Shown: positions 2,800 through 60,697 of the stretch, in pieces
How the letters are laid out: each line of letters begins with the position of its first letter
Numbering within the stretch: the first letter of the stretch is position 1
Source: a virus
Virus record (IMG/VR): IMGVR_UViG_3300042503_000838
Coordinates: 32,001-96,000 of that record
DNA length: 64,000 nucleotides
Reading direction: 5' to 3' (one strand)
Program-made: the position numbers and the translations under genes
The notes under the pieces: generated by a model
Seen by the model: only the letters and a program-made list of their open reading frames with translations
Databases searched by the model: none
What the model was told of the DNA's origin: nothing

Positions 2800-4557
2800 C
2801 TAGAGGTCCTCTAGCCAATTAGAGGCTCCTGAGGTGGCGTAGAGGGCTTTTTGAAGGTCTTCAAGGGATCTGGCGTATCCAAGAGCATCAATAGAGAGAC
2901 CACCGTCACCTTGGACAAACTTTCGTTCCAGTTCCCACTGTTCTGCTTCCCTAGCAGCGATAGCTTTTTGTTCTGTAACAGCCATCGACTCAGTAAAATA
3001 CTGAACAGCCATTGCTAAGGCGTCTAAGCGGTCGTCATGCCTGATGCTGTTTTTCTCTTTGGTAATCCTTGTCAGCTGGAAAAACAGTTGATATTGGCTT
3101 CTGACTTCGCCTGGGTAGCACTCTGTGGAGGCAATGTCGTTAGTGATTACGTCAGTGTCAACCATGAGCCGGTGTTGGTTAAGGACAGGCTCAAGGGTGT
3201 CGATAATGCGGAGTTCCTTTTGCTTTGTGTGTCGAACCTCTTCAACAGTGCAGGGGTAAATCGTTCCGAGGTATCGCTTAAGAAGCTCGGAGAACATACC
3301 GAGGCCGAGGTTACTTTCAACAAGTATTTGCTTGACCTTGAACTCTTTAGCGATGAGGGCCAGCTTTTTGAGGTTCGGTTCGCTGTAACCACCCCTAAGG
3401 CCACCACTGGAGAGGAGGAACAAATTACCGTTCAAGTAAGCCACTACTGCGTAGCCAAGCTCGTCACTGCCGCGTCCAGAAGGGTCAACGGCCATGACCA
3501 CCCCGGTGTATTCAAGAAATTCATCCCCTATTTGGGCCGGTTTGTAAAACAGATCACCATGAAGACCGACTGAGGGTAGGTCAAGGGCTTTATCGCCGTT
3601 AGCAAGCCACACGACTTTATTAGGGCCGTTTTCACGGTTTAAACGGAACACACAAAGGTCTCTGAGCTTGAGAGGAAACCGCTCCTCATCACTCAGGCTG
3701 ATGTCCAACAGGAACTGCAGGTTGAACGTTGAACGACCGATAGAGAGCTGACGAGCTTCCAGTTCAGCCCAGTCAAAACGTTCAGGGTCTACAGGGTGTC
3801 CAGCGAGGCCTTTATCAGCTTCTAGATCGGCTTGGATCTTGGGTGCTAGACGGTCACCGTAATAGCTTTTAAGCTTTTTACCGGTTGGATACAGAGCAGG
3901 CCAGATCCTTACGTTGTAACCAGAGACCTCAAGCTTTGCGTAAACACTGTCTTGGGTGTGAGGCGTACCAAGAAACACGATCTCACCACCAGGCTTGATC
4001 ACAGAGTCAAACTCTTTAATGGACTCCCGGAGCTTGTCTCGAATCAGTTGAGTTTCACAGGACTGGGGTGTCTCAACGTCGTCAGCAACGATGAGGTCAG
4101 CACGGGAGCCAGTAATTTGACCAAAGATACCGCTGGAACGTACCGAAGGAGACTGGTCTGGTTTTGCGCCGTAAACGTCAAAAGCAACCTTACTAAACCG
4201 TTGCGTGTCGCTAGGGAAAAGGTCTTTGACCATAAACCAGTTGCGTAACAAGTCATGGCAAAACACGGAGAACGCATCAGCACGGTCTTGAGCTGCAGAG
4301 ATCACCAAGACCTTACAGTTTGGATCCCTACGGAGTCTCCAAAGTACGTAACCAGCTGTCAAAAACGACTTACCACAGCCTCGGTAAGCCATGATGATGC
4401 GACGGCTAGGACCGCTTTGTAGAAAGTCAGCTACTTGGTATTGGACCGGTGTTGGGCTAGGAAGCCGTAGGTAATGCCAAAGGTGAGTAGCAAAGATTGG
4501 AAAACTTTCTACCGCTTCCTGAATAATCTGTTCAGTCTGTTTGCTTTGCCGTGCCAT
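2800..4557 (-). CDS. Terminase large subunit, T7 gp19-like
   Basis: Walker A-like AYRGCGKS, GQITGSRADLIVADDVE, LGTPHT, nuclease VDPSGRGSDE and HDDRLDALA. Confidence 0.95.
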   Translation of the reverse strand: MARQSKQTEQIIQEAVESFPIFATHLWHYLRLPSPTPVQYQVADFLQSGPSRRIIMAYRGCGKSFLTAGYVLWRLRRDPNCKVLVISAAQDRADAFSVFCHDLLRNWFMVKDLFPSDTQRFSKVAFDVYGAKPDQSPSVRSSGIFGQITGSRADLIVADDVETPQSCETQLIRDKLRESIKEFDSVIKPGGEIVFLGTPHTQDSVYAKLEVSGYNVRIWPALYPTGKKLKSYYGDRLAPKIQADLEADKGLAGHPVDPERFDWAELEARQLSIGRSTFNLQFLLDISLSDEERFPLKLRDLCVFRLNRENGPNKVVWLANGDKALDLPSVGLHGDLFYKPAQIGDEFLEYTGVVMAVDPSGRGSDELGYAVVAYLNGNLFLLSSGGLRGGYSEPNLKKLALIAKEFKVKQILVESNLGLGMFSELLKRYLGTIYPCTVEEVRHTKQKELRIIDTLEPVLNQHRLMVDTDVITNDIASTECYPGEVRSQYQLFFQLTRITKEKNSIRHDDRLDALAMAVQYFTESMAVTEQKAIAAREAEQWELERKFVQGDGGLSIDALGYARSLEDLQKALYATSGASNWLEDL

Positions 4558-36373: not shown

Positions 36374-37348
36374 TCACTCCATCACAAACAGTTTGTTTGC
36401 AACAACTTGAGGCTGAGCCTGGTTCAGGAGACGCCAAGCATTCTGGGGATCACGGGCCATTTGCTCACCGAAAGAACCCCAGAAGTTTTCAGGAGCTTGG
36501 GGAGCGGCAGCAGCAGGAGGTGCAGGGAACTGACCAAGTTGGGGTTGTTCCAGGGCCTGGGTCGGATACCCACGAGTCTCTAATTGAGCTTCGTTTTCGT
36601 ACACAGGATACGGACCTTCGGGACCAAAAAACTTCAGCGTGTAATCGCTGAGCACATCGGGGTTGGTCAGGATCTCGTTGTACGCCAGGTTTTCCTGGTG
36701 CTCGTTGACCGCAAAGTTAGCGTAACCGGTCAGTGCATCAGCGGCGCGGTTTCCCCACGCGACGGCGCTGTCCAGCATCCCTTCCAGATTCAGGGCGTAG
36801 TTGTTCAGCAGAGCCGGAGCTTCCACCCCGTACGCGTCGATTACCATCCGGCTTTCCTGGCTCAGCCCCAGGTAATCCGCGATCTCCGCCAAGGACGGAC
36901 TGGAGGAGGTTTGGGAATAGTTGGGCGAGGATTCCTGGCTGAGATACGAGGTCGGCGCTACCGATTGTTGCGTATTGGGGCCGCTGATCTGGCCGTAATT
37001 GGCTGGGGTATACGCTGTCGGCGCCTGCGAGGGTGCTCCCTGGAACGGGGATTGAACTGGAGCGCTCAGCAGGTTCACCACCTTGTTGAACGCCGATTCC
37101 CATGGGTTCCCCGTCGATTCCGCCGGTTGGGATTGGGGGGCGTACTGCGTAGGGGCTGATTGGTAGCTGGGGATCGCCTGAGGTACCGCTTGGGGGTAGC
37201 TGGTACCCACCTGATAAGCCACTGGAGCCGCCTGGTAGCTGGCCGGAGTTGCCTGAGGAGCCGGAGCTGCCATCACGTAACTGCTCGGAGCGACGGCCGC
37301 TGGTGCTTGGCTCGTCTGTGGGATCGATTGGACGGTAGCGTCCTGCAT
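36374..37348 (-). CDS. Putative capsid scaffolding protein
   Basis: AAGGAG SD before the ATG; Pro/Ala/Gln-rich with a helical core; lies between portal and capsid genes. Confidence 0.7.
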   Translation of the reverse strand: MQDATVQSIPQTSQAPAAVAPSSYVMAAPAPQATPASYQAAPVAYQVGTSYPQAVPQAIPSYQSAPTQYAPQSQPAESTGNPWESAFNKVVNLLSAPVQSPFQGAPSQAPTAYTPANYGQISGPNTQQSVAPTSYLSQESSPNYSQTSSSPSLAEIADYLGLSQESRMVIDAYGVEAPALLNNYALNLEGMLDSAVAWGNRAADALTGYANFAVNEHQENLAYNEILTNPDVLSDYTLKFFGPEGPYPVYENEAQLETRGYPTQALEQPQLGQFPAPPAAAAPQAPENFWGSFGEQMARDPQNAWRLLNQAQPQVVANKLFVME

Positions 37349-39098
37349 AACTCATCTCCTTTTGTAGAGCTTCTAAAGTGCGATACAGATATGGAGTTAA
37401 ATCCAATCGTGGATCTGCAGCCATCGGTAAGTCCGGTGATTGCGGATGGGGGGTCTGCATCATTCCACCCACCAGGCGAGCAAATTGAGAGTAAGCACCC
37501 TGCAATTCATTCACCATCCTGAACGGGAAACCTGATAGCATCCCGGCCCTTTCTTCATCCGTCTTAGACGGGAAGAGGTACTTCAGTGCTTCAATGCTAT
37601 CAACACCTAATTCTTGCAGATTTCGAACAACAATGGAGTTGTTCAGTACATCTTGCGTGGAATCTTCATATACAGGTCCCAACCAACGCCACTGCATTGT
37701 GACATCACCATCTGGAATCAACCCAAGTACACCAGGGGGGATCTGCTGAGTCTTCAAGCAAGCCATCATCAATTGCTTGACCTGATCCTCGAATGCACTC
37801 ATTGCATCGTTGTAAGCAGCAATGTCTGCGTCAGATGCAGTTTCAGGTAGTTCCAGGGGTTTCTCTAGTCCTGCCGCTGCCGCCAACGTCTCTCGGAACA
37901 AGCGTTCTTCCTGGTAAATAATGAGTTCCAGGCAACGGCACACACCATAGGTGTAAATGGCGTTTGCTTTTTTCTTCGATGTTGCGGAAACACGTCCAAA
38001 CAAGGACTTGTACTCTGTTGCGGTAACACCTGCAGAAATAGAAAGCTCGTCAACGCCACCTAAGGCAGTGCGTATTTCTTCTCGATACTGACGCGCAAAA
38101 GAATTCTGGTCACCAGTGATGGCATCTGGGACAATGTAACCAACTCGGTCATTGGGTTCCAAGTTTGCAATCACCCTTGGCACACGGATCTGACCGTCAA
38201 CACCACGGGAGATAGGATCTGCCTTGAACCGAGACTGGCTCATTGCACCCATGCCAGCAAAGCCTGAGTTGGCTGCGATAGAAGGACGCTGTACAGATAC
38301 ATCCCCACCAGCTTCCATCAGGTCCGTCTTGGGACGAGACGAAAGAAGGGTTGGGTTACCAAAGAACTGCACGTTCTTCCGCATGGTGCGGACCATCTCA
38401 TCATGCGTGCAGATGTGGTTGGCTAACGCTTCAAACTCACCAACACCTTCAGTCGAGAAGCCTTTGGGATTATTGAAGATTTCAACGCAGGGAATAAATC
38501 CAAGCGTATTTTTAAACGTTTTAGTTTTACCTGGATTCGCTTGATAAACAGTATCAAAAGAAAGTTCGCCTTCCGAATGAGTCTCCTCAATTGTTCGACG
38601 TTTGATTGAAAGGCGAATGTAGCGTTTTGCTCCGCCTTGTCCCATATAAGCAGGGCCTGTCAGGTTGTTGCTGGCAATATCCTGCTGGAAGCCAAGACCC
38701 TGGCGGACCTTGTAGCTATAGATGATTACAACTTCGTCAAGCTCGCCGTCAATGTTGTAGAAAGAACGATATTCGTGACGCCTGAAATAATAGAGGCGAT
38801 AGTTGTTTTGCGTGGGCCGGATATAAAAGATACCCTGGCCATCACACATGAAATAGTCCCAGATTGAATCCAGGCGTGTGTCAATTTGATTGTATTTGAC
38901 TACGCGATCAATAAAGTCTTTGCGTTGATTACCGAAGTTATCTTGTGCAGGGAAAAACTCAACACCTTGGCGGATGCCAAAGAGCTTCATCTGTGCAAGG
39001 TGTGACGCTACGATGCCCGTATCAATAGACGCGCCGCCGTCTTTATCGAGATACGAGTCGACAATTTCTTTAAGGCGTGATTTAGCGTCTACGGCCAT
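36738..39098 (-). CDS. Portal protein with ~200-aa C-terminal extension overlapping the scaffold gene
   Basis: Follows TerL; portal-like features (FIPCVEIFN, GVGEF, TALGGVDE..AGV, ELGVDS.EAL..LFP). Confidence 0.8.
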   Translation of the reverse strand: MAVDAKSRLKEIVDSYLDKDGGASIDTGIVASHLAQMKLFGIRQGVEFFPAQDNFGNQRKDFIDRVVKYNQIDTRLDSIWDYFMCDGQGIFYIRPTQNNYRLYYFRRHEYRSFYNIDGELDEVVIIYSYKVRQGLGFQQDIASNNLTGPAYMGQGGAKRYIRLSIKRRTIEETHSEGELSFDTVYQANPGKTKTFKNTLGFIPCVEIFNNPKGFSTEGVGEFEALANHICTHDEMVRTMRKNVQFFGNPTLLSSRPKTDLMEAGGDVSVQRPSIAANSGFAGMGAMSQSRFKADPISRGVDGQIRVPRVIANLEPNDRVGYIVPDAITGDQNSFARQYREEIRTALGGVDELSISAGVTATEYKSLFGRVSATSKKKANAIYTYGVCRCLELIIYQEERLFRETLAAAAGLEKPLELPETASDADIAAYNDAMSAFEDQVKQLMMACLKTQQIPPGVLGLIPDGDVTMQWRWLGPVYEDSTQDVLNNSIVVRNLQELGVDSIEALKYLFPSKTDEERAGMLSGFPFRMVNELQGAYSQFARLVGGMMQTPHPQSPDLPMAADPRLDLTPYLYRTLEALQKEMSYAGRYRPIDPTDEPSTSGRRSEQLRDGSSGSSGNSGQLPGGSSGLSGGYQLPPSGTSGDPQLPISPYAVRPPIPTGGIDGEPMGIGVQQGGEPAERSSSIPVPGSTLAGADSVYPSQLRPDQRPQYATIGSADLVSQPGILAQLFPNLLQSVLGGDRGLPGAEPGKPDGNRRVRGGSSGSAEQLRPESGRDAGQRRRVGKPRR

Positions 39099-40027: not shown

Positions 40028-40474
40028 TTAACAAGCCAAACCAACTTTATTTAAGCGTTGCTCGTACGTTTTTATGCGATGGCAATTGGCGCATAATACT
40101 TGGCATTTTTTTATTTCTTCTTTTAATGCCTCAATATTGGTTGTATGCATTTTGGCGATATCGCGTGATTTGGTAACAGGGTCTAAATGATCAAAATCAA
40201 GGGCAGCATGATGATCCTTGTATCCACATTTTTCGCAACCACGTTTTAATTTTTCATTTTTAATAATTTTTGCATTACGTTTTTGTGCTCTTTTTGCGGC
40301 ATCGCGACAGCTAGTCTCTCTTTTTGCCCATGCCTCCGGACTGAGCCAATTCATCTGAAATGTTCCGTCTTTATTGATTCTTGATTTACGTCTATATCCC
40401 AAAAAAATCCGTCCGTCAAGACCGACTTCACCATACTTCCAGGGTTTATTTGTTTCAGGATTGACACGTTCCAT
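40028..40474 (-). CDS. HNH homing endonuclease
   Basis: GCEKCGY...ALDFDHLDP..K...EEIKKCQVLCANCHRIKT. Confidence 0.85.
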   Translation of the reverse strand: MERVNPETNKPWKYGEVGLDGRIFLGYRRKSRINKDGTFQMNWLSPEAWAKRETSCRDAAKRAQKRNAKIIKNEKLKRGCEKCGYKDHHAALDFDHLDPVTKSRDIAKMHTTNIEALKEEIKKCQVLCANCHRIKTYEQRLNKVGLAC

Positions 40475-42000
40475 TAATAATCAAGGTGTAGTTGGCCTTT
40501 GCGGGCGAGGCCATTGACTAACCATACTAACGCGTCGACCGTGTCATCGTGACTACTGACACCAAAGTTTGTCAGTTCTTCAAACATGTTTGTGAAGTTA
40601 CGGTAACGATTGAAGATAATCTTACGATCCTCGAACATGCCAATAATGCCACGGAAACGAGCCAATTTATCTGCTCTAAATCCCTTAACTGGATGCCACA
40701 GTAAGTTGTAAAGACCTTCGTTGCTTAGGCAGACTCTCTTGAAGTCCGCCTCCAGGGACGCTTGGTACTGGACTGCTTCCGACCAAATGTCGCAAGTTGA
40801 ATAAGTCGGAAAGTAATTCCCGTTATCATCGCGACCAAGAATAGACCAATCATTGAGTAGCTCTTTCATTGCGTCAAGTTTTTCCAGGTTGCCCATTACG
40901 CGAATGCGGCGATAATCAATGATGTGTATACGATCATCAACACGACCACCTAGCACCATTACGGTGTAGTCATTCTTTTCCTTGATGCCTGCGGATAGGT
41001 CGACACCAATGCCAAGAGCGTCAAATTCAGTTGAGATTTCAGCTTTAACAATTAGCTCTGGTGCCAGGGAGAGCTCGTTCTGTCTAATAACTTGATTCAT
41101 GTATTGGAACGAAAAGGCAATTGGCGCCTGCCTTTTCTTTTCCTTTAGGTAATCAAGGGACCACATCTCAGGCCAATAGGACTCTTCGTCTCCGGTGACG
41201 GGATCATTTTGAATTGCAGAGAGAACAATCTGCGTCCAGTTGTTTTGTTCGTTGAATGTGGTTGCGTGAATGTCATCATGTCGGAAGCGAGTTCCAAGGC
41301 AGATGGCCCGTCCACCTTCAAACATGGTTGGTGCAATCACTGCGTTCCAGTTCTCCTGCATCATTTTTCTGATGTCAGGGTTTGCGATATCCGCCGAACT
41401 TTTAATGGCGTCATCAATGCAAACCAGATGACTACGCTTGGAGGTCACCGAACCTTTGAGGCCTGCAGCGCAGAGCGTGAACTGTTCGTCACCCGTGGTC
41501 TCAATACCAGCAAAGCGATGGTCAATTGACCAGTACTCATTACTGGTTACGTTCTTGAGAAGACGTACCTTTGGAAATACTTCTTGGTAACGCTTGCTCT
41601 CAATGATACGTTTGATTGTTGCCGACTTAGAACGAGCAATGTCAACCGTATACGACAGATAAAGAATCTGAAGGGGCATCTTGGCTGTGGTATGCACGCC
41701 AATTGCCCATGCAGTGAACAACCCCAAGCTTGTGGACTTGGCGCTACCCCTGGGCGCCAATAAGTCAATATTGGGGCCAGCAACTTTAATCAGGCAGTTA
41801 CTATCTTCCCCTGTAACGAAATGACGATGCCATTCCTTATGGTGCTTCGCAGGAGGTTTATCGGCTACATACTCACAAAAAAAGCTGAAATCTTCTCGCG
41901 CTAACGCAAGAGAATCTTCGTTTTTTGGTTTTCTAAGTTGTTGGTTCTTAGCTGCTGCCTTTGCGTTTCGCCTGTGTGTTAAGTGAAGATACGAAGGCAC
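40474..42000 (-). CDS. Terminase large subunit (Terminase_6-like; unrelated to the T7-type TerL)
   Basis: LAPRGSAKST Walker A, VCIDDAIK Walker B, LGTRFRHDDI, GVDLS...DYTV, HDDTVDALVW. Confidence 0.93.
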   Translation of the reverse strand: MPSYLHLTHRRNAKAAAKNQQLRKPKNEDSLALAREDFSFFCEYVADKPPAKHHKEWHRHFVTGEDSNCLIKVAGPNIDLLAPRGSAKSTSLGLFTAWAIGVHTTAKMPLQILYLSYTVDIARSKSATIKRIIESKRYQEVFPKVRLLKNVTSNEYWSIDHRFAGIETTGDEQFTLCAAGLKGSVTSKRSHLVCIDDAIKSSADIANPDIRKMMQENWNAVIAPTMFEGGRAICLGTRFRHDDIHATTFNEQNNWTQIVLSAIQNDPVTGDEESYWPEMWSLDYLKEKKRQAPIAFSFQYMNQVIRQNELSLAPELIVKAEISTEFDALGIGVDLSAGIKEKNDYTVMVLGGRVDDRIHIIDYRRIRVMGNLEKLDAMKELLNDWSILGRDDNGNYFPTYSTCDIWSEAVQYQASLEADFKRVCLSNEGLYNLLWHPVKGFRADKLARFRGIIGMFEDRKIIFNRYRNFTNMFEELTNFGVSSHDDTVDALVWLVNGLARKGQLHLDY

Positions 42001-52850: not shown

Positions 52851-53006
52851 TATAGCCCTCAATGTGTGTAAATCAACACAATTCCGTACTATTTCATCGC
52901 GCATATGGGGCGCCGGCATCTTAGCACACCTGTGTTCATATAGAACAGTTGGCTAATGTCCACCGGATATTATGTGCATATCCCGACGTGAAAGGTCGGG
53001 ATTAAA

Positions 53007-53032
53007 ACGTCAAGCTGGACGTTAAACGTAGC
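53007..53032 (+). ncRNA. Pseudoknot motif copy 1 (weaker; preceded by hairpin TCCCGAC/GTCGGGA at 52981-53001)
   Basis: ACGTC-AAGCTG-GACGT-TAAAC-GTAGC; loop GCTG pairs with TAGC. Confidence 0.45.
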
Positions 53033-53057
53033 ATTGACTCTTTACTAACTCAACAAC

Positions 53058-53246
53058 ATGACCTCATTCAAGAACTGGGCCACATCCGTCTGTGTTGCAG
53101 CAATCATCATCGGCATCGGCACGCAAGTAATGATGCACCAACTAGATCAAGCAACTGCACAGCAATGTGCTAATCACGACTGGCCCAAGCAAGCACACGA
53201 CATCCACATGGATTGGTGTGCGGCTAACAATTATTCAACCAACTGA
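53058..53246 (+). CDS. Small membrane-anchored early protein
   Basis: ORF track; TM helix; QQCA.HDWP...H..WC motif. Confidence 0.7.
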   Translation: MTSFKNWATSVCVAAIIIGIGTQVMMHQLDQATAQQCANHDWPKQAHDIHMDWCAANNYSTN

Positions 53247-53294
53247 GTACCAGGTGTGATGCCAGGGGATCGAATCCCCTACTCAGTATTGCCA
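53242..53294 (+). ncRNA. tRNA-like mini-element (7-bp acceptor stem plus T-arm, no anticodon arm)
   Basis: ACTGAGT-[15 nt]-AGGGG-ATCGAAT-CCCCT-ACTCAGT-ATTGCCA. Confidence 0.55.
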
Positions 53295-53325
53295 TCCACT
53301 GAAGGTGGCTATAACTCAACTCAAC

Positions 53326-53535
53326 ATGACTGCACTCAACCTACGTAAGAACACTGCTCAGTTCCTATTGAGCACTGCTCAGTCTCTATTGAGCACAGCA
53401 TCTTTTATTGAGCAAGCCAAGGTTCCCAACAAGGAAGATATTGGCGAAAAGCTGAACGAGTATAGAACTCGGGCTGCGGCACTTATGATGCCGAACGACA
53501 TGGCATTCGTTATCACACCTAAGACTGAAGCCTGA
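53326..53535 (+). CDS. Hypothetical early protein (start MTALNLRK)
   Basis: ORF track 53305..53535; ATG with C/A-rich leader at 53326. Confidence 0.65.
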   Translation: MTALNLRKNTAQFLLSTAQSLLSTASFIEQAKVPNKEDIGEKLNEYRTRAAALMMPNDMAFVITPKTEA

Positions 53536-53593
53536 CTCCTGCACTAAGGGCCTATGGGCCTTTTCTGCAGGACTCAACATCCTGTCATCAAAC
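53532..53593 (+). repeat. Intergenic structured repeat A, copy 1
   Basis: CTGACTCCTGCACTAAGGGCCTATGGGCCTTTTCTGCAGGACTCAACATCCTGTCATCAAAC; similar to 54031-54091. Confidence 0.9.
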
Positions 53594-53610
53594 CTACCGA
53601 GCTCAACTCA

Positions 53611-53832
53611 ATGCTCTGCTACTATCCACACGAAGGTGCCACCGAACGCATCACTTGGCATGGTGGGGAATCAACCATGCTTCACTACCAGGTGCAAGTA
53701 GATGACTACAAGGGAGATCCTGATTGGATCGAGCGTGAATCTCAGACATTCATGGGAGGAATGCCTTGTGGCACCAAGGAACTACTAGCTGCAATGTCTG
53801 ATTACTACCAAAGCATCGTTCAACCTTACTGA
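53611..53832 (+). CDS. Hypothetical early protein (start MLCYYPHEG)
   Basis: The ORF-track start at 53554 lies inside repeat A; ATG at 53611 has the typical leader. Confidence 0.6.
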   Translation: MLCYYPHEGATERITWHGGESTMLHYQVQVDDYKGDPDWIERESQTFMGGMPCGTKELLAAMSDYYQSIVQPY

Positions 53833-53833
53833 C

Positions 53834-54034
53834 ATGAACAACAACTACTTCACAAACGCTGTGCTTGCCCTCGTTATGGGCGCAGGAGCAGGCATGCTGC
53901 TATCTGCTGGAGCACAGCAACTACTCAACAAGCACTACGTCAAGACATGCCCAGCAAAGCCAGGGCATCAACTCATATACATGCGTAGCTTTCTAGGCGA
54001 TGCATACTATTGCTTAGATAAGCGCACACTCTGA
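53834..54034 (+). CDS. Small membrane-anchored early protein with C-x-C motifs
   Basis: ORF track; TM helix. Confidence 0.65.
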   Translation: MNNNYFTNAVLALVMGAGAGMLLSAGAQQLLNKHYVKTCPAKPGHQLIYMRSFLGDAYYCLDKRTL

Positions 54035-54091
54035 CTCTTGCACTAAGGGGCTTCGGCCCTTTACTGCAGGACTCAATATCCTGCATCAAAC
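54031..54091 (+). repeat. Intergenic structured repeat A, copy 2
   Basis: CTGACTCTTGCACTAAGGGGCTTCGGCCCTTTACTGCAGGACTCAATATCCTGCATCAAAC; C-UUCG-G tetraloop. Confidence 0.9.
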
Positions 54092-54108
54092 TTGTAGCTC
54101 AACACCAC

Positions 54109-54306
54109 ATGAAACACACAGTTCGTTTGGAACCAGGGCGATTTATCCACCTTGATTCTTACTATGCGTCTCATGAGACACGCCTTAGTAAGATCTGCGT
54201 GGTAGCCCTGACACTAACCATTGCCGCACTCACTGCAGGTGCAGTGATCGGCATGGATATCACAAACCCAACTCCTACTCAACACCATGACAACACTCAG
54301 CGCTAA
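54109..54306 (+). CDS. Small membrane protein
   Basis: ORF track; TM helix. Confidence 0.6.
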   Translation: MKHTVRLEPGRFIHLDSYYASHETRLSKICVVALTLTIAALTAGAVIGMDITNPTPTQHHDNTQR

Positions 54307-54625
54307 CATCAAACTTATCGAAGATCGCATCCAGGAACTCTGTGATGCACTACAAGATCACTTTTACAAACAGTACCAACGTGTCTGCACATATGAAATT
54401 GTGCGAGGCGTTAAGTACTACAAGATCATCCACGTCTGCAACCCTGGCTGTGAACGTGAAGGCAGGTCAGTCCATGCATTTGTCGCAAGGCAAACAGGGA
54501 CTGTATACAAGCCTGCCTCATGGAAAGCACCAGCGAAACATGCCAGGTACCAGCTACTAGATGACGGATCATTTGCTAGGTGCCTAGAAAAAGCAGACTG
54601 GGCTGGAGCGTACCTCTACCTGTAG
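54287..54625 (+). CDS. Conserved cyanophage hypothetical (KYYKII...SVHAFV...G.VYKPASWKAPAKHARY)
   Basis: Recognisable recurring phage motif. Confidence 0.75.
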   Translation: MTTLSANIKLIEDRIQELCDALQDHFYKQYQRVCTYEIVRGVKYYKIIHVCNPGCEREGRSVHAFVARQTGTVYKPASWKAPAKHARYQLLDDGSFARCLEKADWAGAYLYL

Positions 54626-54672
54626 TCACACCACAGGTAGCGTACCACCCTCGCATCACACTACATGCGTTG

Positions 54673-54701
54673 TTGCATAGCTAGCAACCAGCATGTAACC
54701 T
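54673..54701 (+). promoter_or_regulatory. Sigma70-type early promoter inside nested inverted repeats
   Basis: TTGCAT-N17-TAACCT with TG extension; TACATGC/GCATGTA and GTTGC/GCAAC repeats. Confidence 0.65.
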
Positions 54702-54723
54702 AACTCAGCACCAACCCAACTCC

Positions 54724-54939
54724 ATGGAACTCCTCAATCAATTTGATGTTGCTAACCCTGATCACGTCTCAGTGATTACCAGGGATGGCAAGGTTATTAT
54801 CTCCATCCGCAAGGATGGGACAGATGTAACTATTGGTATTCCCCATGGGTCTAGCAACAACATCTTTAACACAACCCCCCGGCCCCCTCTACAACAGCCA
54901 GCACCACAGATAAAGGCTGTTAAGGAGGTAAGGCCTTAG
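54724..54939 (+). CDS. Hypothetical protein
   Basis: ORF track. Confidence 0.6.
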   Translation: MELLNQFDVANPDHVSVITRDGKVIISIRKDGTDVTIGIPHGSSNNIFNTTPRPPLQQPAPQIKAVKEVRP

Positions 54940-55002
54940 TTGTTTTCTTGATAAACAACGGTTATTAGGATTCCAAGTAACTGAACTCACCCCAACACTC
55001 CA

Positions 55003-55377
55003 ATGAAATCACGCATCTCTGTCCTTAAAGAAGACCAGATCTGGGCACTGCGTTGCAAAGGATATCGCTACGACTTGATCGCTAGCATTGTCAACTGCAG
55101 CCCAGTATCTATGACACAGGTACTCCGACGGGTAAGGCAACGTCCTCCCGTCAAGGAAGACCCAATCAAACGTGGCCGTTACCGTGGCTTCCTAAGTGAT
55201 GCCCAGGTAAATGACATTCGTAACCGTGCCAAGTACAAGGAACCCATTGGGTTTATTGCCAGGGCTTACGACATGACACCAGAGGCCATCTATGCAATCG
55301 TCAGCTACAGGACCTATAAGGAACCCTGCAAAGATGATGTATTTATCCCACGCTTTGCTAACAGACTCATGAGGTAG
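55003..55377 (+). CDS. Tandem HTH DNA-binding protein
   Basis: IWALRCKGYRYDLIASIVNCS and LSDAQVNDIR...IARAYDMTPEAIYAI. Confidence 0.65.
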   Translation: MKSRISVLKEDQIWALRCKGYRYDLIASIVNCSPVSMTQVLRRVRQRPPVKEDPIKRGRYRGFLSDAQVNDIRNRAKYKEPIGFIARAYDMTPEAIYAIVSYRTYKEPCKDDVFIPRFANRLMR

Positions 55378-55393
55378 TACATAAGTATTATCA

Positions 55394-55414
55394 ATCACCC
55401 CACAATGGGGTGAT
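55394..55414. other. Perfect 8-bp hairpin preceding pseudoknot copy 2
   Basis: ATCACCCC-ACAAT-GGGGTGAT. Confidence 0.6.
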
Positions 55415-55421
55415 CCTACTC

Positions 55422-55450
55422 ACGTCCTGAGTAAGACGTTAAACTGCTCA
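55422..55450 (+). ncRNA. Pseudoknot motif copy 2
   Basis: ACGTC-CTGAGTAA-GACGT-TAAAC-TGCTCA; TGAGTA pairs with TGCTCA (one G-U). Confidence 0.65.
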
Positions 55451-55472
55451 CCGTTCCATCTCAACTCAGACC

Positions 55473-55616
55473 ATGATTGAACTTGATCAGAACTACAACG
55501 CTGACTTGCTTGATGCTATGGCAGACATTGCCTACGAGCAGGAGCAAGCCATGTTTGAATCCAATCAAGAAGAATGGATTCTAGTTGAACATCCACTTAC
55601 TTACCAAGGTGACTAA
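55473..55616 (+). CDS. 47-aa acidic peptide MIELDQNYNADLLDAMADIAYEQEQ...
   Basis: Manual translation; follows pseudoknot copy 2. Confidence 0.6.
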   Translation: MIELDQNYNADLLDAMADIAYEQEQAMFESNQEEWILVEHPLTYQGD

Positions 55617-55618
55617 CC

Positions 55619-56077
55619 ATGGCCAAATCAATTCAACGCACTGAAGTGTGGGATGAAGACCCAATCATTCTCTTCATCACACTCATCTCAATCTCAATCA
55701 CACTCATAGGAGATCTCATCTCATGTCTCTTCAACCTGAACAACTGCTCATCGCAGACGCTTTCGGCTACGAACCCTGTGGTCCAGACGAAGCTTCAGAA
55801 CAGTACCAAGCCTACGCAGACTTCCAAGACGCACCCAAAGGCGCCATCGCCTGCACTGGTAACGTCTACCGAAACAAGCGTGGAACCCTCCGTTGCTACT
55901 GGATCCCAACCGGTGGCAACTACTCAGCCCAGGACAAAGAAGATCTCGAAGGATGGTACGACGTCCCAACCAACGAAGAGATCGAGGAGTACACATTCGA
56001 CAGCTGCTGCCTCACTCCCTGTGGAGACGAAGTCGAACCCGATCATTCCGACAGCTGGCTTAGGATTCTCGGCTTGA
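55619..56077 (+). CDS. Membrane-anchored ORF overlapping 55723..56082 out of frame
   Basis: ORF track; start 2 nt after the upstream stop; TM helix. Confidence 0.45.
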   Translation: MAKSIQRTEVWDEDPIILFITLISISITLIGDLISCLFNLNNCSSQTLSATNPVVQTKLQNSTKPTQTSKTHPKAPSPALVTSTETSVEPSVATGSQPVATTQPRTKKISKDGTTSQPTKRSRSTHSTAAASLPVETKSNPIIPTAGLGFSA

Positions 56078-56082
56078 TCTAA
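55723..56082 (+). CDS. Conserved-looking hypothetical (…CLTPCGDEVEPDHSDSWLRILGLI)
   Basis: ORF track; acidic phage-like composition. Confidence 0.7.
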   Translation: MSLQPEQLLIADAFGYEPCGPDEASEQYQAYADFQDAPKGAIACTGNVYRNKRGTLRCYWIPTGGNYSAQDKEDLEGWYDVPTNEEIEEYTFDSCCLTPCGDEVEPDHSDSWLRILGLI

Positions 56083-56117
56083 CCTACATCACATAACACT
56101 AGCGTTATGCTGACATG

Positions 56118-56135
56118 CGCTATTCGCGAATAGCG
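56118..56135. promoter_or_regulatory. Perfect 18-bp palindrome CGCTATTCGCGAATAGCG
   Basis: Read directly; intergenic. Confidence 0.6.
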
Positions 56136-56148
56136 AACAGTAAGTACC

Positions 56149-56178
56149 AGGGTATTGCCAGATAACTACTGGCCTACC
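56149..56178 (+). repeat. 30-nt direct repeat B, copy 1
   Basis: AGGGTATTGCCAGATAACTACTGGCCTACC, identical to 56420-56449. Confidence 0.95.
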
Positions 56179-56204
56179 TATCTAAACTCAAAGCGATTAA
56201 CACA

Positions 56205-56411
56205 ATGCCACAAAGAATTTTTGTTTTCAAAACCACTGAAGTTACTTCAGATGGCAGACCTTATCTTCTAGCTATACCAGAAGATAAGATAACTGAACTG
56301 CGTACAACTTATGGCAGCGATAACATCTATGCAATTGTTAACGGCACGAAAGTCAATTGTTCCTTTGAGCGATTGATCAAAGAACTAGGTACGCCTCACA
56401 ACTGTTTTTAA
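56205..56411 (+). CDS. Hypothetical protein bracketed by repeat B
   Basis: ORF track. Confidence 0.65.
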   Translation: MPQRIFVFKTTEVTSDGRPYLLAIPEDKITELRTTYGSDNIYAIVNGTKVNCSFERLIKELGTPHNCF

Positions 56412-56419
56412 ACTCATCA

Positions 56420-56449
56420 AGGGTATTGCCAGATAACTACTGGCCTACC
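56420..56449 (+). repeat. 30-nt direct repeat B, copy 2
   Basis: Exact copy of 56149-56178. Confidence 0.95.
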
Positions 56450-56545
56450 CCCTGCACCCCTGCAAGAAGTACCAGAGGTGCACCCTTAATCTATTAGGGA
56501 ATACCTCTGTACTACACACCATTCATTCACTTACCAACCCAAGAC

Positions 56546-56833
56546 ATGACACCTACCTACCGTCAACCCAAACTTAATGAGTACCACAAACTCACAGATA
56601 TTCTTGAAGAACTACAAGCAATGTCTCAACGTGAGAGCAAGAGGCATGAAATAGATCAACACCTGACTCCATCCATGCTTGCTCTACTGGATAACGAGAT
56701 CATTCCCATACTTGAGAATGAACTGGAATGGGAACCATCAGATGCAGACCTTAGCTGTGATGGTGAACCGCCCCTGACTGCTGATGAAATGCACACTGCA
56801 GCATGGCGTCAGCACCAGGAACTGCATAGCTAA
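56546..56833 (+). CDS. Hypothetical protein (…GEPPLTADEMHTAAWRQHQELHS)
   Basis: ORF track. Confidence 0.7.
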   Translation: MTPTYRQPKLNEYHKLTDILEELQAMSQRESKRHEIDQHLTPSMLALLDNEIIPILENELEWEPSDADLSCDGEPPLTADEMHTAAWRQHQELHS

Positions 56834-56891
56834 CAGCCCTACCGCAACATTAAGGAATCATTAAGACCACTGGTCATGGCTTGCTGCCACC

Positions 56892-56900
56892 TGGTAGACT
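56892..56900 (+). promoter_or_regulatory. Extended -10 box TGG-TAGACT within a 10-bp inverted repeat (56871-56911)
   Basis: TGGTCATGGC/GCCGTGACCA flank the box; 38 nt upstream of ATG 56939. Confidence 0.45.
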
Positions 56901-56938
56901 TGCCGTGACCACACTCAGATCTCACTTGACACCACACC

Positions 56939-57142
56939 ATGTCCGACAGCATTCGCATCCCAGACTCAATTGATCTTCAGCGTCTACAAGCTATGCAGCT
57001 TGTAGCCAAGATGAAAGAATCAGCTGATAAACATGGGGTTGGTTTCATTGGGGGCTTCATTGCCCCCAATGGAGAGAAATTCATCATGACAAATATGGAT
57101 GATGAAGATACCCAAGCATTACTACCTGACAATTTGAAATGA
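56939..57142 (+). CDS. Conserved cyanophage hypothetical protein
   Basis: ORF track; DLQRLQAMQLVAKMK...GFIGGF. Confidence 0.7.
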   Translation: MSDSIRIPDSIDLQRLQAMQLVAKMKESADKHGVGFIGGFIAPNGEKFIMTNMDDEDTQALLPDNLK

Positions 57143-57219
57143 CAACCATTGAATTCTTGATTCTATTTGGAATTCTTGTTTGCTTTTCCTTGTTACTTAA
57201 CTATTTGATTTATGGATAA
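57139..57219 (+). CDS. 26-aa hydrophobic peptide MTTIEFLILFGILVCFSLLLNYLIYG
   Basis: Manual translation; ATGA coupling. Confidence 0.45.
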   Translation: MTTIEFLILFGILVCFSLLLNYLIYG

Positions 57220-57508
57220 ACACAAAGCAATGATCGATGAGATCATTGACAAATTCAACTTTGAACGAGTGCACATTGCTATGACAGCACTTGACTGGCA
57301 ATGGGCAACCACAGCAGGTAATGGATATGCAATACCAACACTAACCAAACTCAAAGCAATGGCACGTACTTTGTTACGTGAATCCTTTAATGAAACACAA
57401 GTTAGCAGTGGTGGTTTTGTAGCCACTTACCATCCCAAGGACGAACTTACCTCTGAGTATTTTGACTTGAAGTTTGTACTCCATCACGCAGATTCTTACG
57501 ATGACTAA
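57212..57508 (+). CDS. Hypothetical protein (IDEIIDKFNFERVHIAMTALDWQW)
   Basis: ORF track. Confidence 0.7.
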   Translation: MDKHKAMIDEIIDKFNFERVHIAMTALDWQWATTAGNGYAIPTLTKLKAMARTLLRESFNETQVSSGGFVATYHPKDELTSEYFDLKFVLHHADSYDD

Positions 57509-57851
57509 CCAACAACATCCCATTATTCCGCCACAAGATCTACGCAACAAGTGGCTTGATGAGGCGCCAAGTACCAGTGTGTACGACTATCTCATTGACA
57601 GCGCAGCACAATGGGGTGCCGACACGGAGCTAGAAGCCTGTTGTGAGTGGCTTGTAGCACACCAATGGCTTTCGGCATCTGGCGCATGTCTTTTAAATCT
57701 TCGTACTGACCGTCGTCCCAGGCCTCTTAGCCTGAAGGAACAGGCGTTAGCAGTACTTGAAGAAGAACCTGAAGATGCTAAAGAACTTATTGTGTTTGAC
57801 ACAGATCAAGTTAATCTCATCCGCCGCGCACTCGAGGCGTTACCTGAATGA
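57474..57851 (+). CDS. Cyanophage hypothetical, HPI.PP...AAQWG.D.ELEACCEW family (likely start 57501)
   Basis: Paralog of 62107..62439. Confidence 0.7.
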   Translation: MYSITQILTMTNQQHPIIPPQDLRNKWLDEAPSTSVYDYLIDSAAQWGADTELEACCEWLVAHQWLSASGACLLNLRTDRRPRPLSLKEQALAVLEEEPEDAKELIVFDTDQVNLIRRALEALPE

Positions 57852-58045
57852 CTGACAAATCACCCATCAACTTTGATAAGACCATCGCTGGGTTTAACAT
57901 AACCGAGCATGGTATTAAATCATTCACCAAATCAATTCAACTTGGTCCGTTCCAGATTACACTTAACGCTAGAGAATCTGGTGTACGTGGATCTATTTCA
58001 TTGCCTGGCACAGGCTTGAGCAAACGAAACATACGTTTGCTCTGA
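57848..58045 (+). CDS. DUF4236-like protein
   Basis: FTKSIQLGPFQITLN...GVRGSISLPGTGLS. Confidence 0.65.
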   Translation: MTDKSPINFDKTIAGFNITEHGIKSFTKSIQLGPFQITLNARESGVRGSISLPGTGLSKRNIRLL

Positions 58046-58059
58046 TCCAAGGACCTGGG

Positions 58060-58296
58060 ATGTCCTTAAACTCATCCAGTCCAACTCAACCTCATCTCAT
58101 GAACTCGACCGAACTCCACGCCATGATTGCCCGCATGGACAGCTATGGCGGCTCATTCGTATCCTCAATAGCACAAGCACTACGCTTTGCTGATCCAAAG
58201 AATCGGCAGCGTTTGCTTGATGCATTCCCTGATCTTGTCCAGAAGTATGGACCTCAAGGTCAGTTTGCCCAAGCCAAACAACTCACACAGGTGTAA
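58060..58296 (+). CDS. Conserved phage hypothetical (YGGSFVSSIAQALRFADPKNRQRLLDAFPDL)
   Basis: Recognisable recurring motif. Confidence 0.7.
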   Translation: MSLNSSSPTQPHLMNSTELHAMIARMDSYGGSFVSSIAQALRFADPKNRQRLLDAFPDLVQKYGPQGQFAQAKQLTQV

Positions 58297-58299
58297 CCC

Positions 58300-58548
58300 A
58301 TGCAAGTCCTAGCAATCGAAGACACATTCATTGACGGCAACGATGTCACAGTTACAGCAGTGGTTGACGAAATGCGTCTCATTCGCAAGTCGACTTACCT
58401 CGACCCTGATGAGTACGCTCCTGCACTATGCAGAACAAGCTTCGAACTGGATGAGGGAGAACAAATCCCTCTTGACGAAGATGGCTTCTGCGATTATCTT
58501 GCTTTGCTCAACCCTGACTGGGAATTACTCCCAGTAGATAACGACTGA
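58300..58548 (+). CDS. Acidic cyanophage hypothetical protein
   Basis: ORF track. Confidence 0.7.
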   Translation: MQVLAIEDTFIDGNDVTVTAVVDEMRLIRKSTYLDPDEYAPALCRTSFELDEGEQIPLDEDGFCDYLALLNPDWELLPVDND

Positions 58549-58555
58549 CATCACA

Positions 58556-58583
58556 CGTCCTGGACATGACGCTAAACTGTCCA
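58556..58583 (+). ncRNA. Pseudoknot motif copy 3
   Basis: CGTC-CTGGACAT-GACG-CTAAAC-TGTCCA; TGGACA pairs perfectly with TGTCCA. Confidence 0.65.
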
Positions 58584-58611
58584 CTCACTCCGAACCTACT
58601 CCGAACTTATC

Positions 58612-60354
58612 ATGCAGTTTCAATTACCCTCGAACCTTCAAACAGAACTCCTGGCTTACGATCCCAAGCTCAAGCAGCTTCAACGTGAGCAGAATCCTAT
58701 ATCAACCAAAGCTAAAGCTAAGTTTCCACTTGGTGCAGTCTTTGATCTGATACCTGCTGATGTTGTTACACCTACAAAGCTTGAGCAAGTAATAACAGAT
58801 CTCAATGCCAGGGGTGTAGCACATCGCCATACTCAGTTTACCAAGGTAACAGATATTGCTACACCAAGAGCACGCACTATTACCTATGCCATCATCTATC
58901 ACTATGAGAAGGTGTGGTATGCAGCATGGCTACCACCCAAAGGACAAGAGAATGATTATGTATATGGCTATGCATATGCATACAAGAATCTTGATTCAGT
59001 ACGCAAATCTATTCCAAGTTCGTTGCTTCAAAACAATAGTACAACTCCAGTTGAATATGTTAAGTACGGACGCAGTGAGTTCTGTGTTGTACGCCAGAAC
59101 TTAACCAAGGAAGATATTGCCAACGGCAATACAACTCATTGGTGGTGCCCTTGCTACGTATCATACGGCAAAGGCGGTAATATCAGGACAGCTATATCCG
59201 CATTTGAATCTGCACTTAGCCAAACCATTCCCAAGTGGGATGACTCACGTAAATTCTTTGATCGTATTGTCACCAATAATTGGGCTACAATTCTTGGATT
59301 AAAACGTTGCAGTAAGTATTGGAATACTTTTGCAGATCCAGAGCAAGCTATGCGTGATGCAATTCCATCTGCAGATTTGTTTTACGGAATAGCTGATACA
59401 TACAAGAAGGATAATAATGATTATCACAGCCAAGTATATTGCATTGCTCATCGCGTACTGCATATAGTTGGTACACCATTCTTCCGCAAGTGGATTCAAT
59501 CGCAATGCGATGAAGCCATTGCAATGTTTAATAACCCTGAGAACAATCTATTCTGCAAGATAACTCAACCTTGGAATCGTATTGAAAAACTAGTGCAGGC
59601 TATTGATTACGTTAATAATATTTGGCCGGACTGCCCTGTTGATTTCTATCAGAACCATATTGAATATCTAATTGGCACACGACTTGATCGTTACGTAGGT
59701 GAAAAGGCAAAGACTTGGTTGTGCACACATATGCAACCAGCTTCCTTCTTTCATATCCTCAAGAAAAACTACGAAGATCAGATCAATGATAAATCCAGTA
59801 GCTTGTCTTACTACACAAGCACTGAGATAGGCAAGCTTACATTCTATTTAACTGAATGGAATGACTCACTATCAATGCTTGATGATGTGCTCAACAATGA
59901 CATGACCATTGATCCGCCAAGGCGTTGGCGCCTGACTGAGTTCCATGATCATGTGCAAGCAGAAGCATGGAAGATCAAGCATCCAAACGCTAGCCTGCCC
60001 CAGGATCTATTCCCCTCACCTGTCAAGGTTGAAGTGGGTGATGAACGCTGGTCATTCTTCCAGCCTCATGACACACATCAATTGTCAGCATGGGGCCAGG
60101 CCGTACGTAATTGCGTCGGCAATGCCAGTGAGTATGCCACTGGTGTACGCAAGAAGAAACATTTCATTGTGCTCTGTATGGTTGACGGCAAACCTCAGTT
60201 CACTGTCCAACTCAAAGTTGAGATGGGCATGATGAGCGTTAGCCAGATCGTTGGTACATCCAACCAGCGGTTGACGCAAGAGCAGAAGGATTCCTACACA
60301 GAAGCCTTTGGCAAAGCGTTGAAACTTCAAGCAGATGCGCTAGAGTCTGTCTAG
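58612..60354 (+). CDS. PcfJ-like domain protein
   Basis: C-terminal EFHDH...LPQDL...P....QL..WGQAVRNCVG..Y...FIV...GKPQFTVQL. Confidence 0.75.
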   Translation: MQFQLPSNLQTELLAYDPKLKQLQREQNPISTKAKAKFPLGAVFDLIPADVVTPTKLEQVITDLNARGVAHRHTQFTKVTDIATPRARTITYAIIYHYEKVWYAAWLPPKGQENDYVYGYAYAYKNLDSVRKSIPSSLLQNNSTTPVEYVKYGRSEFCVVRQNLTKEDIANGNTTHWWCPCYVSYGKGGNIRTAISAFESALSQTIPKWDDSRKFFDRIVTNNWATILGLKRCSKYWNTFADPEQAMRDAIPSADLFYGIADTYKKDNNDYHSQVYCIAHRVLHIVGTPFFRKWIQSQCDEAIAMFNNPENNLFCKITQPWNRIEKLVQAIDYVNNIWPDCPVDFYQNHIEYLIGTRLDRYVGEKAKTWLCTHMQPASFFHILKKNYEDQINDKSSSLSYYTSTEIGKLTFYLTEWNDSLSMLDDVLNNDMTIDPPRRWRLTEFHDHVQAEAWKIKHPNASLPQDLFPSPVKVEVGDERWSFFQPHDTHQLSAWGQAVRNCVGNASEYATGVRKKKHFIVLCMVDGKPQFTVQLKVEMGMMSVSQIVGTSNQRLTQEQKDSYTEAFGKALKLQADALESV

Positions 60355-60405: not shown

Positions 60406-60630
60406 ATGACTGAGTACACCGACGACCAACTCCTAGCACAAGCACTCGCCAACATTGGTGAATACATACATACTCATGGCACACCTGATTATGTATTGAT
60501 TGATGAGCAGGATCCTCGCAATGAGGATGACTACGACACATGGAGCTATGGCACTGAGCCATTGCCACATGATCACACTTGGCAGCACACATCAATTGAT
60601 GTGAGTGTAAGTCCAAGTGAGCCCGAGTAG
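60406..60630 (+). CDS. Acidic hypothetical protein
   Basis: ORF track; its stop codon lies inside the tRNA 5' end. Confidence 0.65.
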   Translation: MTEYTDDQLLAQALANIGEYIHTHGTPDYVLIDEQDPRNEDDYDTWSYGTEPLPHDHTWQHTSIDVSVSPSEPE

Positions 60631-60697
60631 CCCAGCGGTAGTAGGCAAGCGACTTAAAATCGCTACAGCGTGAGTTCGAATCTCACCTCGGGTACCA
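60621..60697 (+). tRNA. trnL: tRNA-Leu(UAA) with encoded CCA and a short variable loop
   Basis: GCCCGAG/CTCGGGT acceptor, AGCGA-CTTAAAA-TCGCT anticodon arm, GTGAG-TTCGAAT-CTCAC T-arm, A73-CCA. Confidence 0.9.

Follow-up and report, generated by a model that had tools for sequence, protein, structure and literature searches.

The 64,000-nucleotide stretch analysed here (hereafter the window) comprises bases 32001-96000 of the 125,842-bp IMG/VR virus record IMGVR_UViG_3300042503_000838, which belongs to a lake cyanophage, and carries three copies of a small RNA element, a compact H-type pseudoknot that we refer to as the knot. This element is a real, widespread and covarying RNA pseudoknot. By its sequence it resembles coremin, an exoribonuclease-resistant RNA (xrRNA) of eukaryotic RNA viruses, and looks like a coremin-type variant in hosts where one would not expect it. 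The reading that we tentatively favour is that the knot may act as a self-folding 5'→3' roadblock at cistron boundaries, shielding the RNA that lies downstream of it.

The pattern CGTC-N6-8-GACG-Y-TAAAC, sought on both strands of the window, fits three places, each of them on the plus strand (53008, 55423 and 58556), and 100 dinucleotide-preserving shuffles of the window returned none. Three pseudoknots at these sites, with the complementary loop and tail sequences TGAGTA/TGCTCA, TGGACA/TGTCCA and GCTG/TAGC, had been proposed from the sequence of this stretch (the original prediction), and the pattern scan bears them out. In copy 2 (55423..55450; 48.3 bits with the covariance model), stem 1 (S1) is formed by CGUC 55423-55426 with GACG 55435-55438, and stem 2 (S2) by the loop sequence UGAGUA 55428-55433 with the tail UGCUCA 55445-55450, giving six base pairs of which one is G·U; the connecting segments are L1 (C55427), L2 (A55434) and L3 (UUAAAC, 55439-55444). 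Copy 3 (58556..58583; 49.4 bits) has the same build, with CGUC 58556-58559 paired to GACG 58568-58571, six S2 pairs between UGGACA 58561-58566 and UGUCCA 58578-58583, L1 C58560, L2 U58567 and the L3 sequence CUAAAC at 58572-58577. Copy 1 (53008..53033) is a divergent and, as predicted, shorter variant: it has a 6-nt loop, an S1 of 53008-53011 with 53018-53021 that can be extended by A53007:U53022, a 4-bp S2 (GCUG 53014-53017 with UAGC 53029-53032, one pair being G·U), an L3 at 53022-53028 and a G in place of the U after AAAC, and it scores only 21.2 bits (E 0.018). The count of three holds for the window and is an undercount for the virus, as three further copies lie just outside the window on the same strand of the record: strong covariance-model matches at record positions 99449 and 103303 (window-equivalent 67449 and 71303), and a heptaloop variant found with a relaxed pattern at 96102 (window-equivalent 64102). 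An orthologous copy nearly identical to copy 2 is present in another viral locus (L007). In the minimum free energy (MFE) fold, the copy 2 loop UGAGUA also pairs perfectly with UACUCA 55416-55421 just upstream, forming an alternative hairpin (55416-55433) that competes with the pseudoknot; this hairpin is common to L007 and is missing from more distant relatives.

As RNA, the consensus reads C-GUC-C-U-RRR-Y-A-N-GAC-G-Y-UAAAC-U-G-YYY-A and describes a 26-28-nt H-type pseudoknot with a 4-bp S1, a 5-6-bp S2, an L1 and an L2 of 1 nt each, and a 6-nt A-rich L3 (UUAAAC) that probably sits in the minor groove of S1. In an alignment of 116 copies 94.8% of cells are paired (91.3% for S2), and double-sided changes are seen in five of the six S2 pairs and in the first S1 pair; the observed values were not reached by any of 500 shuffles, and slid controls were 18-50% paired. 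The S1 pairs G2-C15, U3-A14 and C4-G13 do not vary across 115 distinct rows, and the outer pair 1:16 covaries (C:G, U:A, A:U, G:C) and is sometimes mismatched, which coremin tolerates too. Where this outer pair is other than C:G, the class to which a second IMG/VR scan was confined, it is paired in 80 and unpaired in 25 of the matches listed, with 49 paired copies expected. In 177 unique copies, pair 8:26, at positions that the search pattern leaves free, is A:U 87 times and G:C 70 times, and pair 9:25 is G:C in 117, A:U in 30, U:A in 6 and C:G in 4. The same 177 copies hold 126 G·U against 9 A·C combinations, and therefore the structure forms in the sense-strand RNA.

The linker is conserved as well: AAAC is invariant in the alignment and the following U nearly so, although part of this invariance is fixed by the search pattern. 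Covariance-model matches in the virus's own genome and in its cultured relative, the cyanophage S-EIV1, vary here only by Y17, U18A and one C22G. Orthologous copies give a direct view of the compensation, since 26 of them preceding the same PcfJ-like gene display 10 different loop/tail combinations, most of which are complementary. The proposal of a selected pseudoknot in which stem and linker stay fixed while the loop and its 3' partner change together is therefore borne out by the 116-copy alignment and by the orthologues, with double-sided changes reaching well beyond what three copies can show. Both the covariation and the asymmetry between G·U and A·C contradict the fallback offered with it, in which TAAAC(T) would be no more than a -10 box.

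A scan against Rfam 15 found nothing on the knot, at gathering scores or at E≤10, in the window region and in the loci holding 12 copies, in line with the expectation that the element belongs to no Rfam family, pistol and all riboswitch families included. A full-text literature search for its invariant letters returned papers on coremin and otherwise chance primer matches. The original prediction had not recognised the knot as a named motif; it does, however, resemble coremin (xrRNA-C) and its Watson-Crick form, xrRNA-WCC. [quoted passage not shown] It stalls the exoribonuclease Xrn1 ∼1 nt before its first hairpin (hp1), blocks scanning ribosomes and stimulates -1 frameshifting; its resistance is directional, acting from the 5' side, and the As and the CU are essential for Xrn1 stalling (PMC6546385; PMC10520033).

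The core GUC-C…A-N-GAC-GUUAAACU is common to the knot and coremin. Both have a GUC/GAC stem closed by a pyrimidine-purine pair with an optional fourth pair, a loop that starts with C and has A as its penultimate nucleotide, and the identical spacer GUUAAACU, and the essential AAA, C and U of coremin are the invariant positions of the knot. Natural coremin variants recur as well: U13C corresponds to Y17, and U14A to the GACGUAAAAC seen in S-EIV1 and at record position 103303. Larger loops of 6-8 nt are tolerated in both, and tandem copies occur in both; tandem knots were seen in L168, L128 and L083, including S1 variants GGUC/GACC with AUAAAC as L3. The two differ in what follows ...AAACU, where the knot has nucleotides that form 5-6 Watson-Crick pairs with the loop and coremin has a fixed 'AC'. 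They also differ in setting, as the knot lies between the cistrons of double-stranded DNA (dsDNA) phages and bacterial mobile elements and coremin in the 3' untranslated regions of RNA genomes.

The form closest to the knot in architecture is xrRNA-WCC, in which the loop pairs antiparallel with the end of the spacer (Dilweg et al. 2023, PMC10321173). In both, an antiparallel Watson-Crick S2 joins the hp1 loop to the nucleotides after AAA(C), and L1 is 1 nt long. S2 has 3 bp drawn from a 4-nt loop in xrRNA-WCC, with G as L1, whereas in the phages it has 5-6 bp and is shifted by one position, leaving C22 unpaired, with C as L1. Watson-Crick coremin variants were selected as frameshift stimulators in Escherichia coli, are strong in that activity and keep it without hp2 (PMC10321173). 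The same authors compare coremin with the pseudoknot architecture of luteoviruses (PMC10321173), and the knot too shares with the frameshifting pseudoknots of beet western yellows virus (BWYV) and potato leafroll virus (PLRV) a compact H-type fold in which L1 is short and an A-rich L3 lies over an S1 that is G-C-rich. The knots, however, stand after stop codons rather than within overlapping frames and lack a slippery site: among 168 copies with an upstream open reading frame (ORF) ending within 15 nt, not one stop codon is directly preceded by a slippery heptamer X XXY YYZ, which rules out programmed frameshifting. The flavivirus and tombusvirid/polerovirus xrRNAs have in common with the knot a proposed role, that of a protein-independent mechanical block to 5'→3' exonucleases, but their folds are unrelated and larger (a three-way junction, or a stem-loop, with a 9-bp pseudoknot ring) and show no sequence similarity to it. 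The xrRNA of CASP16, also considered, is of a different class.

Coremin in its hexaloop form (YGNNAD + GUUAAACUA) is itself present at no fewer than 110 IMG/VR loci (at least 110), many of them on phage or prophage contigs of 20-60 kb, and also in the cultured Enterococcus phages SEsuP-1 and Efs 1-1-1. The contigs on which the tetraloop form was found were mostly short, with lengths as expected of RNA viruses. One locus (L083) bears a knot of the Watson-Crick type followed 11 nt on by a YGNNAD hexaloop coremin. At five further loci (L294, L313, L324, L318 and L315) the hexaloop motif begins 2-3 nt past a sequence like a tRNA 3' end (GGTTCGATTCC...) and has a terminator-like hairpin after it; to the eye, the arrangement resembles the end of a prophage integrated in a tRNA gene, and processing of the tRNA 3' end could leave a small stable RNA there. 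No paper linking coremin to phages or bacteria was found in the searchable full-text literature.

An exact scan of IMG/VR with CGTCCT-N6-GACG-Y-TAAACTG gave at least 141 copies at no fewer than 115 loci (at least 115), with up to six per locus among the matches listed. Bacterial genomes contain the exact pattern at 77 loci (85 copies). By rough arithmetic about 35 of these could be chance matches; at least four contiguous S2 pairs are present in 68 of the 85, so most are real, and about a fifth are chance, such as a conserved coding sequence in Cytophagales that lacks S2 pairing. The hosts of the phages and mobile elements concerned include cyanobacteria, Firmicutes, Saccharibacteria, Chloroflexi and others; in a Saccharibacteria locus resembling a conjugative element the knot lies 7 nt past a stop codon. 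The setting first described for the knot, upstream of early genes, is thus too narrow, since phages and mobile elements across many phyla carry the element widely, and it stands ahead of tRNAs and ribozymes too. In Bradymonadales (L122), an unclassified metagenome-assembled genome (MAG; L130) and Calditrichia (L154) the motif is flanked by repeat-like sequences resembling CRISPR repeats, and these matches appear to be CRISPR spacers taken from phage knot regions. Five Firmicutes-type loci (L034, L163, L174, L188 and L193) have a second conserved stretch (…GCGUGUCUGGGC-N-AGGUCAGAUGUGC…) ∼30-70 nt past the knot, just before the Shine-Dalgarno sequence (SD); the Rfam scan of L163, L174, L188 and L193 gave no identification for it.

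A cultured relative was found through protein searches. Megablast of the region against the INPHARED phages returned no match, and a 786-aa structural protein is 77% identical to its counterpart in the freshwater cyanophage S-EIV1 (KJ410740; host Synechococcus). The S-EIV1 genome has six knots, all co-oriented with genes of the replication module. They precede orthologues of genes that bear knots here, namely those for the 580-aa PcfJ-like protein (36999-38756 in S-EIV1), the single-stranded DNA-binding protein SSB and a small protein beginning MFE. The outer S1 pair has changed from C:G to U:A in three of the six, one of which is the copy before the PcfJ-like gene, and to A:U in a fourth.

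The position of the knot between genes is sharply defined. Among the 168 copies with an upstream ORF, 64 have exactly 5 nt between the stop codon and C1, and another 72 have 6-10 nt; only 7 have a gap of less than 5 nt, and the spacers themselves are diverse in sequence. With a stop codon in the ribosomal A site, the mRNA entry channel would be taken up by the next five nucleotides. Such a wall at 5 nt is as expected if the knot must stay folded, or if the terminating ribosome cannot unwind it, and the knot may thus be set as near to the stop codon as it can be without being unwound. On the downstream side, 86 of 97 copies have the start of an ORF of 40 codons or more on the same strand within 150 nt, compared with 60 of 97 in the opposite-strand control. 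Distances from knot to ATG peak at 19-22 and 25-28 nt; in phages that use Shine-Dalgarno sequences the ATG lies 50-150 nt away. The three copies in the window end 24, 22 and 28 nt before an ATG, counted from the last paired base of copies 1, 2 and 3, within the predicted range of 22-28 nt. The positions upstream of the knot show stop codons and no -10-like or -35-like conservation, and it follows that the knot of the cyanophage group lies inside polycistronic RNA.

The unit behind the knot need not be a gene. At nine loci that were checked the knot is 2-10 nt before a tRNA gene. It is directly followed by type III hammerhead ribozymes four times in L173, the Rfam match starting 3 nt past the 24-nt pattern, and it is associated with a hammerhead in L136 too. 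In L147 it lies 4 nt before a DUF2800 RNA, measured from the end of the matched 24-nt pattern. L173 is a Firmicutes contig on which four successive junctions are built alike, from a stop codon, 6 nt, the knot, a type III hammerhead, a hairpin, an SD and a gene; two of these units are at 2089-2176 and 3071-3158 on the minus strand and two more at ∼5095 and ∼5646. Self-cleavage at these junctions would leave a knot at the 3' end of each upstream message.

Taking these observations together, we favour, with some reserve, the view that the knot is a 5'→3' roadblock. According to this model, each copy would be transcribed within a polycistronic phage mRNA and would fold unaided into a compact H-type pseudoknot. 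Decay machinery arriving from an upstream 5' end would be halted just before S1; the enzyme blocked would be RNase J in hosts that possess it, or perhaps an RNase E tethered to the 5' end. What lies behind the knot, be it a leader and gene or, in other settings, a tRNA, a ribozyme or a leader RNA, would thereby persist as a stable processed RNA, with a possible effect on mRNA half-life. A nuclease roadblock was among the roles first proposed for the element, and it is favoured over the others because the core matches that of the Xrn1-resistant coremin; a metabolite switch and an antitoxin mimic, proposed beside it, are unlikely given the dispersal of the knot before unrelated genes. The same core works in RNA viruses of plants and fungi, so the most likely purpose of the conserved letters is to build a self-contained tertiary fold, not to offer a protein site. 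Moreover, placement ahead of any downstream RNA unit, be it gene, tRNA, hammerhead or DUF2800 RNA, argues for a general barrier rather than a switch or a translation element. The stem that would be reinforced by L3 is the 5' one, which would suit a barrier to 5'→3' machines. A flaviviral xrRNA blocks bacterial RNase J1 in vitro (PMC5760640). RNase J itself was detected above the cut-off in six of ten genomes linked to the motif, probably in a seventh, and also in a cyanobacterial control; a search for xrRNA, RNase J and phage together found nothing relevant in the searchable literature.

Several observations weigh against this roadblock model. RNase J went undetected in three motif-linked MAGs (Bacteroidetes, Deltaproteobacteria and Calditrichia), and its presence in 8 to 10 of 14 control genomes, depending on the threshold, is about the motif-linked rate and hence not discriminating. 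Where a hammerhead or a tRNA follows the knot, cleavage detaches the knot from the very RNA it is supposed to protect. In Firmicutes-type phages the knot often comes after a terminator-like hairpin with a U-run, which makes its route of transcription puzzling. The likeness to coremin is also incomplete. The coremin loop YGAD/YGNNAD is not found in the window, where the loops are of 8 or 6 nt (C-U-R-R-R-Y-A-N); loop position 2 is U or C in the phages and G in coremin, and C occupies the last loop position in 33 of 177 copies (∼19%). Nor is there an hp2: a hairpin starts within 8 nt past the knot in 43% of copies and in 43% of random windows, falling to 14% where an ORF starts close by. Since hp2 is 'strictly necessary' for the Xrn1 resistance of both published coremin types, xrRNA-WCC included, its lack, together with the misfit at loop position 2, leads us to file the knot as a variant that resembles coremin and not as a member of that class. 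The lack of hp2 lowers the case for Xrn1 resistance of the coremin type more than it lowers the case for a mechanically strong knot, because the Watson-Crick variants selected in E. coli keep their frameshift-stimulating strength without it.

One may extend the roadblock model further and speculate that the knot is a prokaryotic exoribonuclease-resistant RNA, sharing its tertiary core with coremin by descent or by convergence, with which dsDNA phages and conjugative elements of many phyla punctuate their polycistronic messages into nuclease-proof units. We regard this broader proposal as possible and rather doubtful.

The strongest of the alternatives, though still an unlikely one in our judgement, directs the knot at the ribosome and not at a nuclease. 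It might serve as a barrier or docking point at cistron junctions that counters post-termination sliding, re-initiation or read-through, or as a standby or positioning element for start codons in the cyanophage leaders that lack a Shine-Dalgarno sequence. The capacity of coremin to block scanning ribosomes and the activity of hp2-less variants in E. coli both suit such a role, and so would the 5-nt gap, which with the stop codon in the A site should bring the first S1 pair to the mRNA entry and helicase site. The preferred knot-to-ATG distances in leaders without a Shine-Dalgarno sequence fit it as well, but they give way to far longer ones where Shine-Dalgarno sequences are used, and knots directly before tRNA genes, hammerheads and the DUF2800 RNA have no start codon near them. 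No slippery heptamer precedes any of the 168 stop codons, and the modes at 5 and ∼20 nt may only mirror genome compaction around a fold that is not to be disturbed.

It is improbable that the knot is an operator, whose invariant letters would be read by a host or phage RNA-binding protein co-regulating the knot-bearing messages as a regulon of translation or stability, much as T4 RegA or gene 32 would. The extreme conservation of both single-stranded and stem letters would be natural for such a site, as would several copies per genome before unrelated genes and the fixed distance to the start codon in the cyanophage group; the same core, however, works protein-free in eukaryotic RNA viruses, and the knot precedes tRNAs and ribozymes as well. 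No protein gene common to the contexts in different phyla was noticed, co-occurrence not having been tested systematically.

The tie between the knot and the stop codon upstream, with its modal gap of 5 nt, could instead mean that it is the upstream cistron that is protected. After a cut downstream, by a hammerhead, by RNase P at a tRNA or by an endonuclease in the leader, the knot would cap that cistron against 3'→5' exonucleases, and the start of the type III hammerhead about where the 28-nt knot ends would leave a 3' tail of a few nucleotides; tRNA 5' ends lie 2-10 nt past the knot. Against this speaks the direction of the barrier, as coremin resists from the 5' side and the presumably triplex-reinforced stem is the 5' one; in many Firmicutes-type contexts, moreover, a terminator-like hairpin with a U-run already stands ahead of the knot. 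We consider 3'-end protection slightly less probable still than an operator.

Two explanations have very little probability left. The idea that the knot is a minimal self-cleaving ribozyme, or else a pistol remnant or relative, was suggested by a resemblance to the 5' part of pistol, which presumably also has a 5' hairpin, a UUAAA-type linker and a hairpin loop engaged in a pseudoknot, and the hammerheads of L173 and L136 place knots in ribozyme company; yet no pistol (RF02679) or other ribozyme match was obtained at E≤10 over 15 copies, the G-poor sequence downstream cannot form P2/P3 or a cleavage-site strand, in agreement with the earlier remark that the rest of pistol is absent, and in published assays coremin RNAs are stable and do not self-cleave. 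Riboswitches of the preQ1-I-like and guanidine-III-like kinds, which came to mind as small pseudoknots, were set aside on the negative Rfam scan and the dispersal of the element before unrelated genes, tRNAs and ribozymes. A signal in the DNA, either a promoter whose -10 box is TAAACT or one of the hairpin kind used by a phage RNA polymerase, would accommodate the match of TAAACT to TAnnnT, the frequent terminator-like hairpins ahead of the knot and the Rfam hammerhead and DUF2800 matches that begin near the start site expected ∼7 nt past TAAACT, but double-stranded promoters have no need of covarying loops, tails and stems, the G·U excess points to sense-strand RNA, the identical core acts as RNA in RNA viruses, -35-like and upstream -10-like conservation is lacking, and a promoter/terminator scan stayed at the background of shuffled sequence with no promoter-like site overlapping the copies.

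If the knot does block bacterial decay enzymes, the range of exoribonuclease-resistant RNAs would grow beyond eukaryotic RNA viruses to take in DNA phages and the mobile elements of bacteria, an extension of which we found no report in the searchable literature. It would then offer a portable stabiliser or insulator of 28 nt for synthetic biology in bacteria, cyanobacteria included, and would give the coremin field naturally covarying sequences by the hundred, of a kind it does not have, towards solving the coremin fold. The knot also accounts for a recurrent 'mystery repeat' in the early and replication regions of phages, and provides a conserved target that CRISPR spacers appear to sample. 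Cultured systems are at hand: S-EIV1 on Synechococcus represents the Watson-Crick type, and the hexaloop type is available in Enterococcus phages SEsuP-1 and Efs 1-1-1.

In the window, copies 1 and 2 each follow another stable hairpin, as had been predicted. The one 5 nt upstream of copy 1 (52980..53002) has an 8-bp stem and may belong to the upstream unit as its 3'-end or terminator-type hairpin; the fold of 52975-53036 has an energy of -20.6 kcal/mol (z -3.65). The one 8 nt upstream of copy 2 (55394..55414) has a 9-bp stem (-19.4 kcal/mol and z -3.67 for 55390-55452), and its shape is kept in the relatives L007, L013, L028 and L098. The leaders that run from the knots to the start codons (53034..53057 to ATG 53058, 55451..55472 to ATG 55473 and 58584..58611 to ATG 58612) are all G-poor, unstructured and without a Shine-Dalgarno sequence. 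As a class, the 36 nt beyond the knot have a G fraction of 0.12 and a median MFE of -1.1 kcal/mol, against -4.1 kcal/mol in random windows.

All of these hairpins and leaders, and the ORFs around the three copies, are on the plus strand. Copy 1 precedes an ORF of 62 aa (53058..53246) without a family match, and copy 2 one of 47 aa (55473..55616), followed by a 152-aa ORF (55619-56077). Copy 3 is located 7 nt past the TGA stop (58546-58548) of the ORF 58300..58548 and precedes an ORF of 580 aa (58612..60354) that has a PcfJ-like C-terminal domain. Another gene family behind knots is DUF3768, beside a Replic_Relax gene in a Saccharibacteria mobile element (L118:5114-5446); the PcfJ-like and DUF3768/Replic_Relax families are typical of the early-entry or leading regions of conjugative elements. 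About 270 nt past the PcfJ-like gene of the window is a tRNA-Leu (anticodon taa; 60621-60697, plus strand), which, unlike the tRNAs of several other phages, has no knot ahead of it. The window also contains two different large-terminase genes, of 585 aa (2800-4557) and 508 aa (40474-42000), both on the minus strand.

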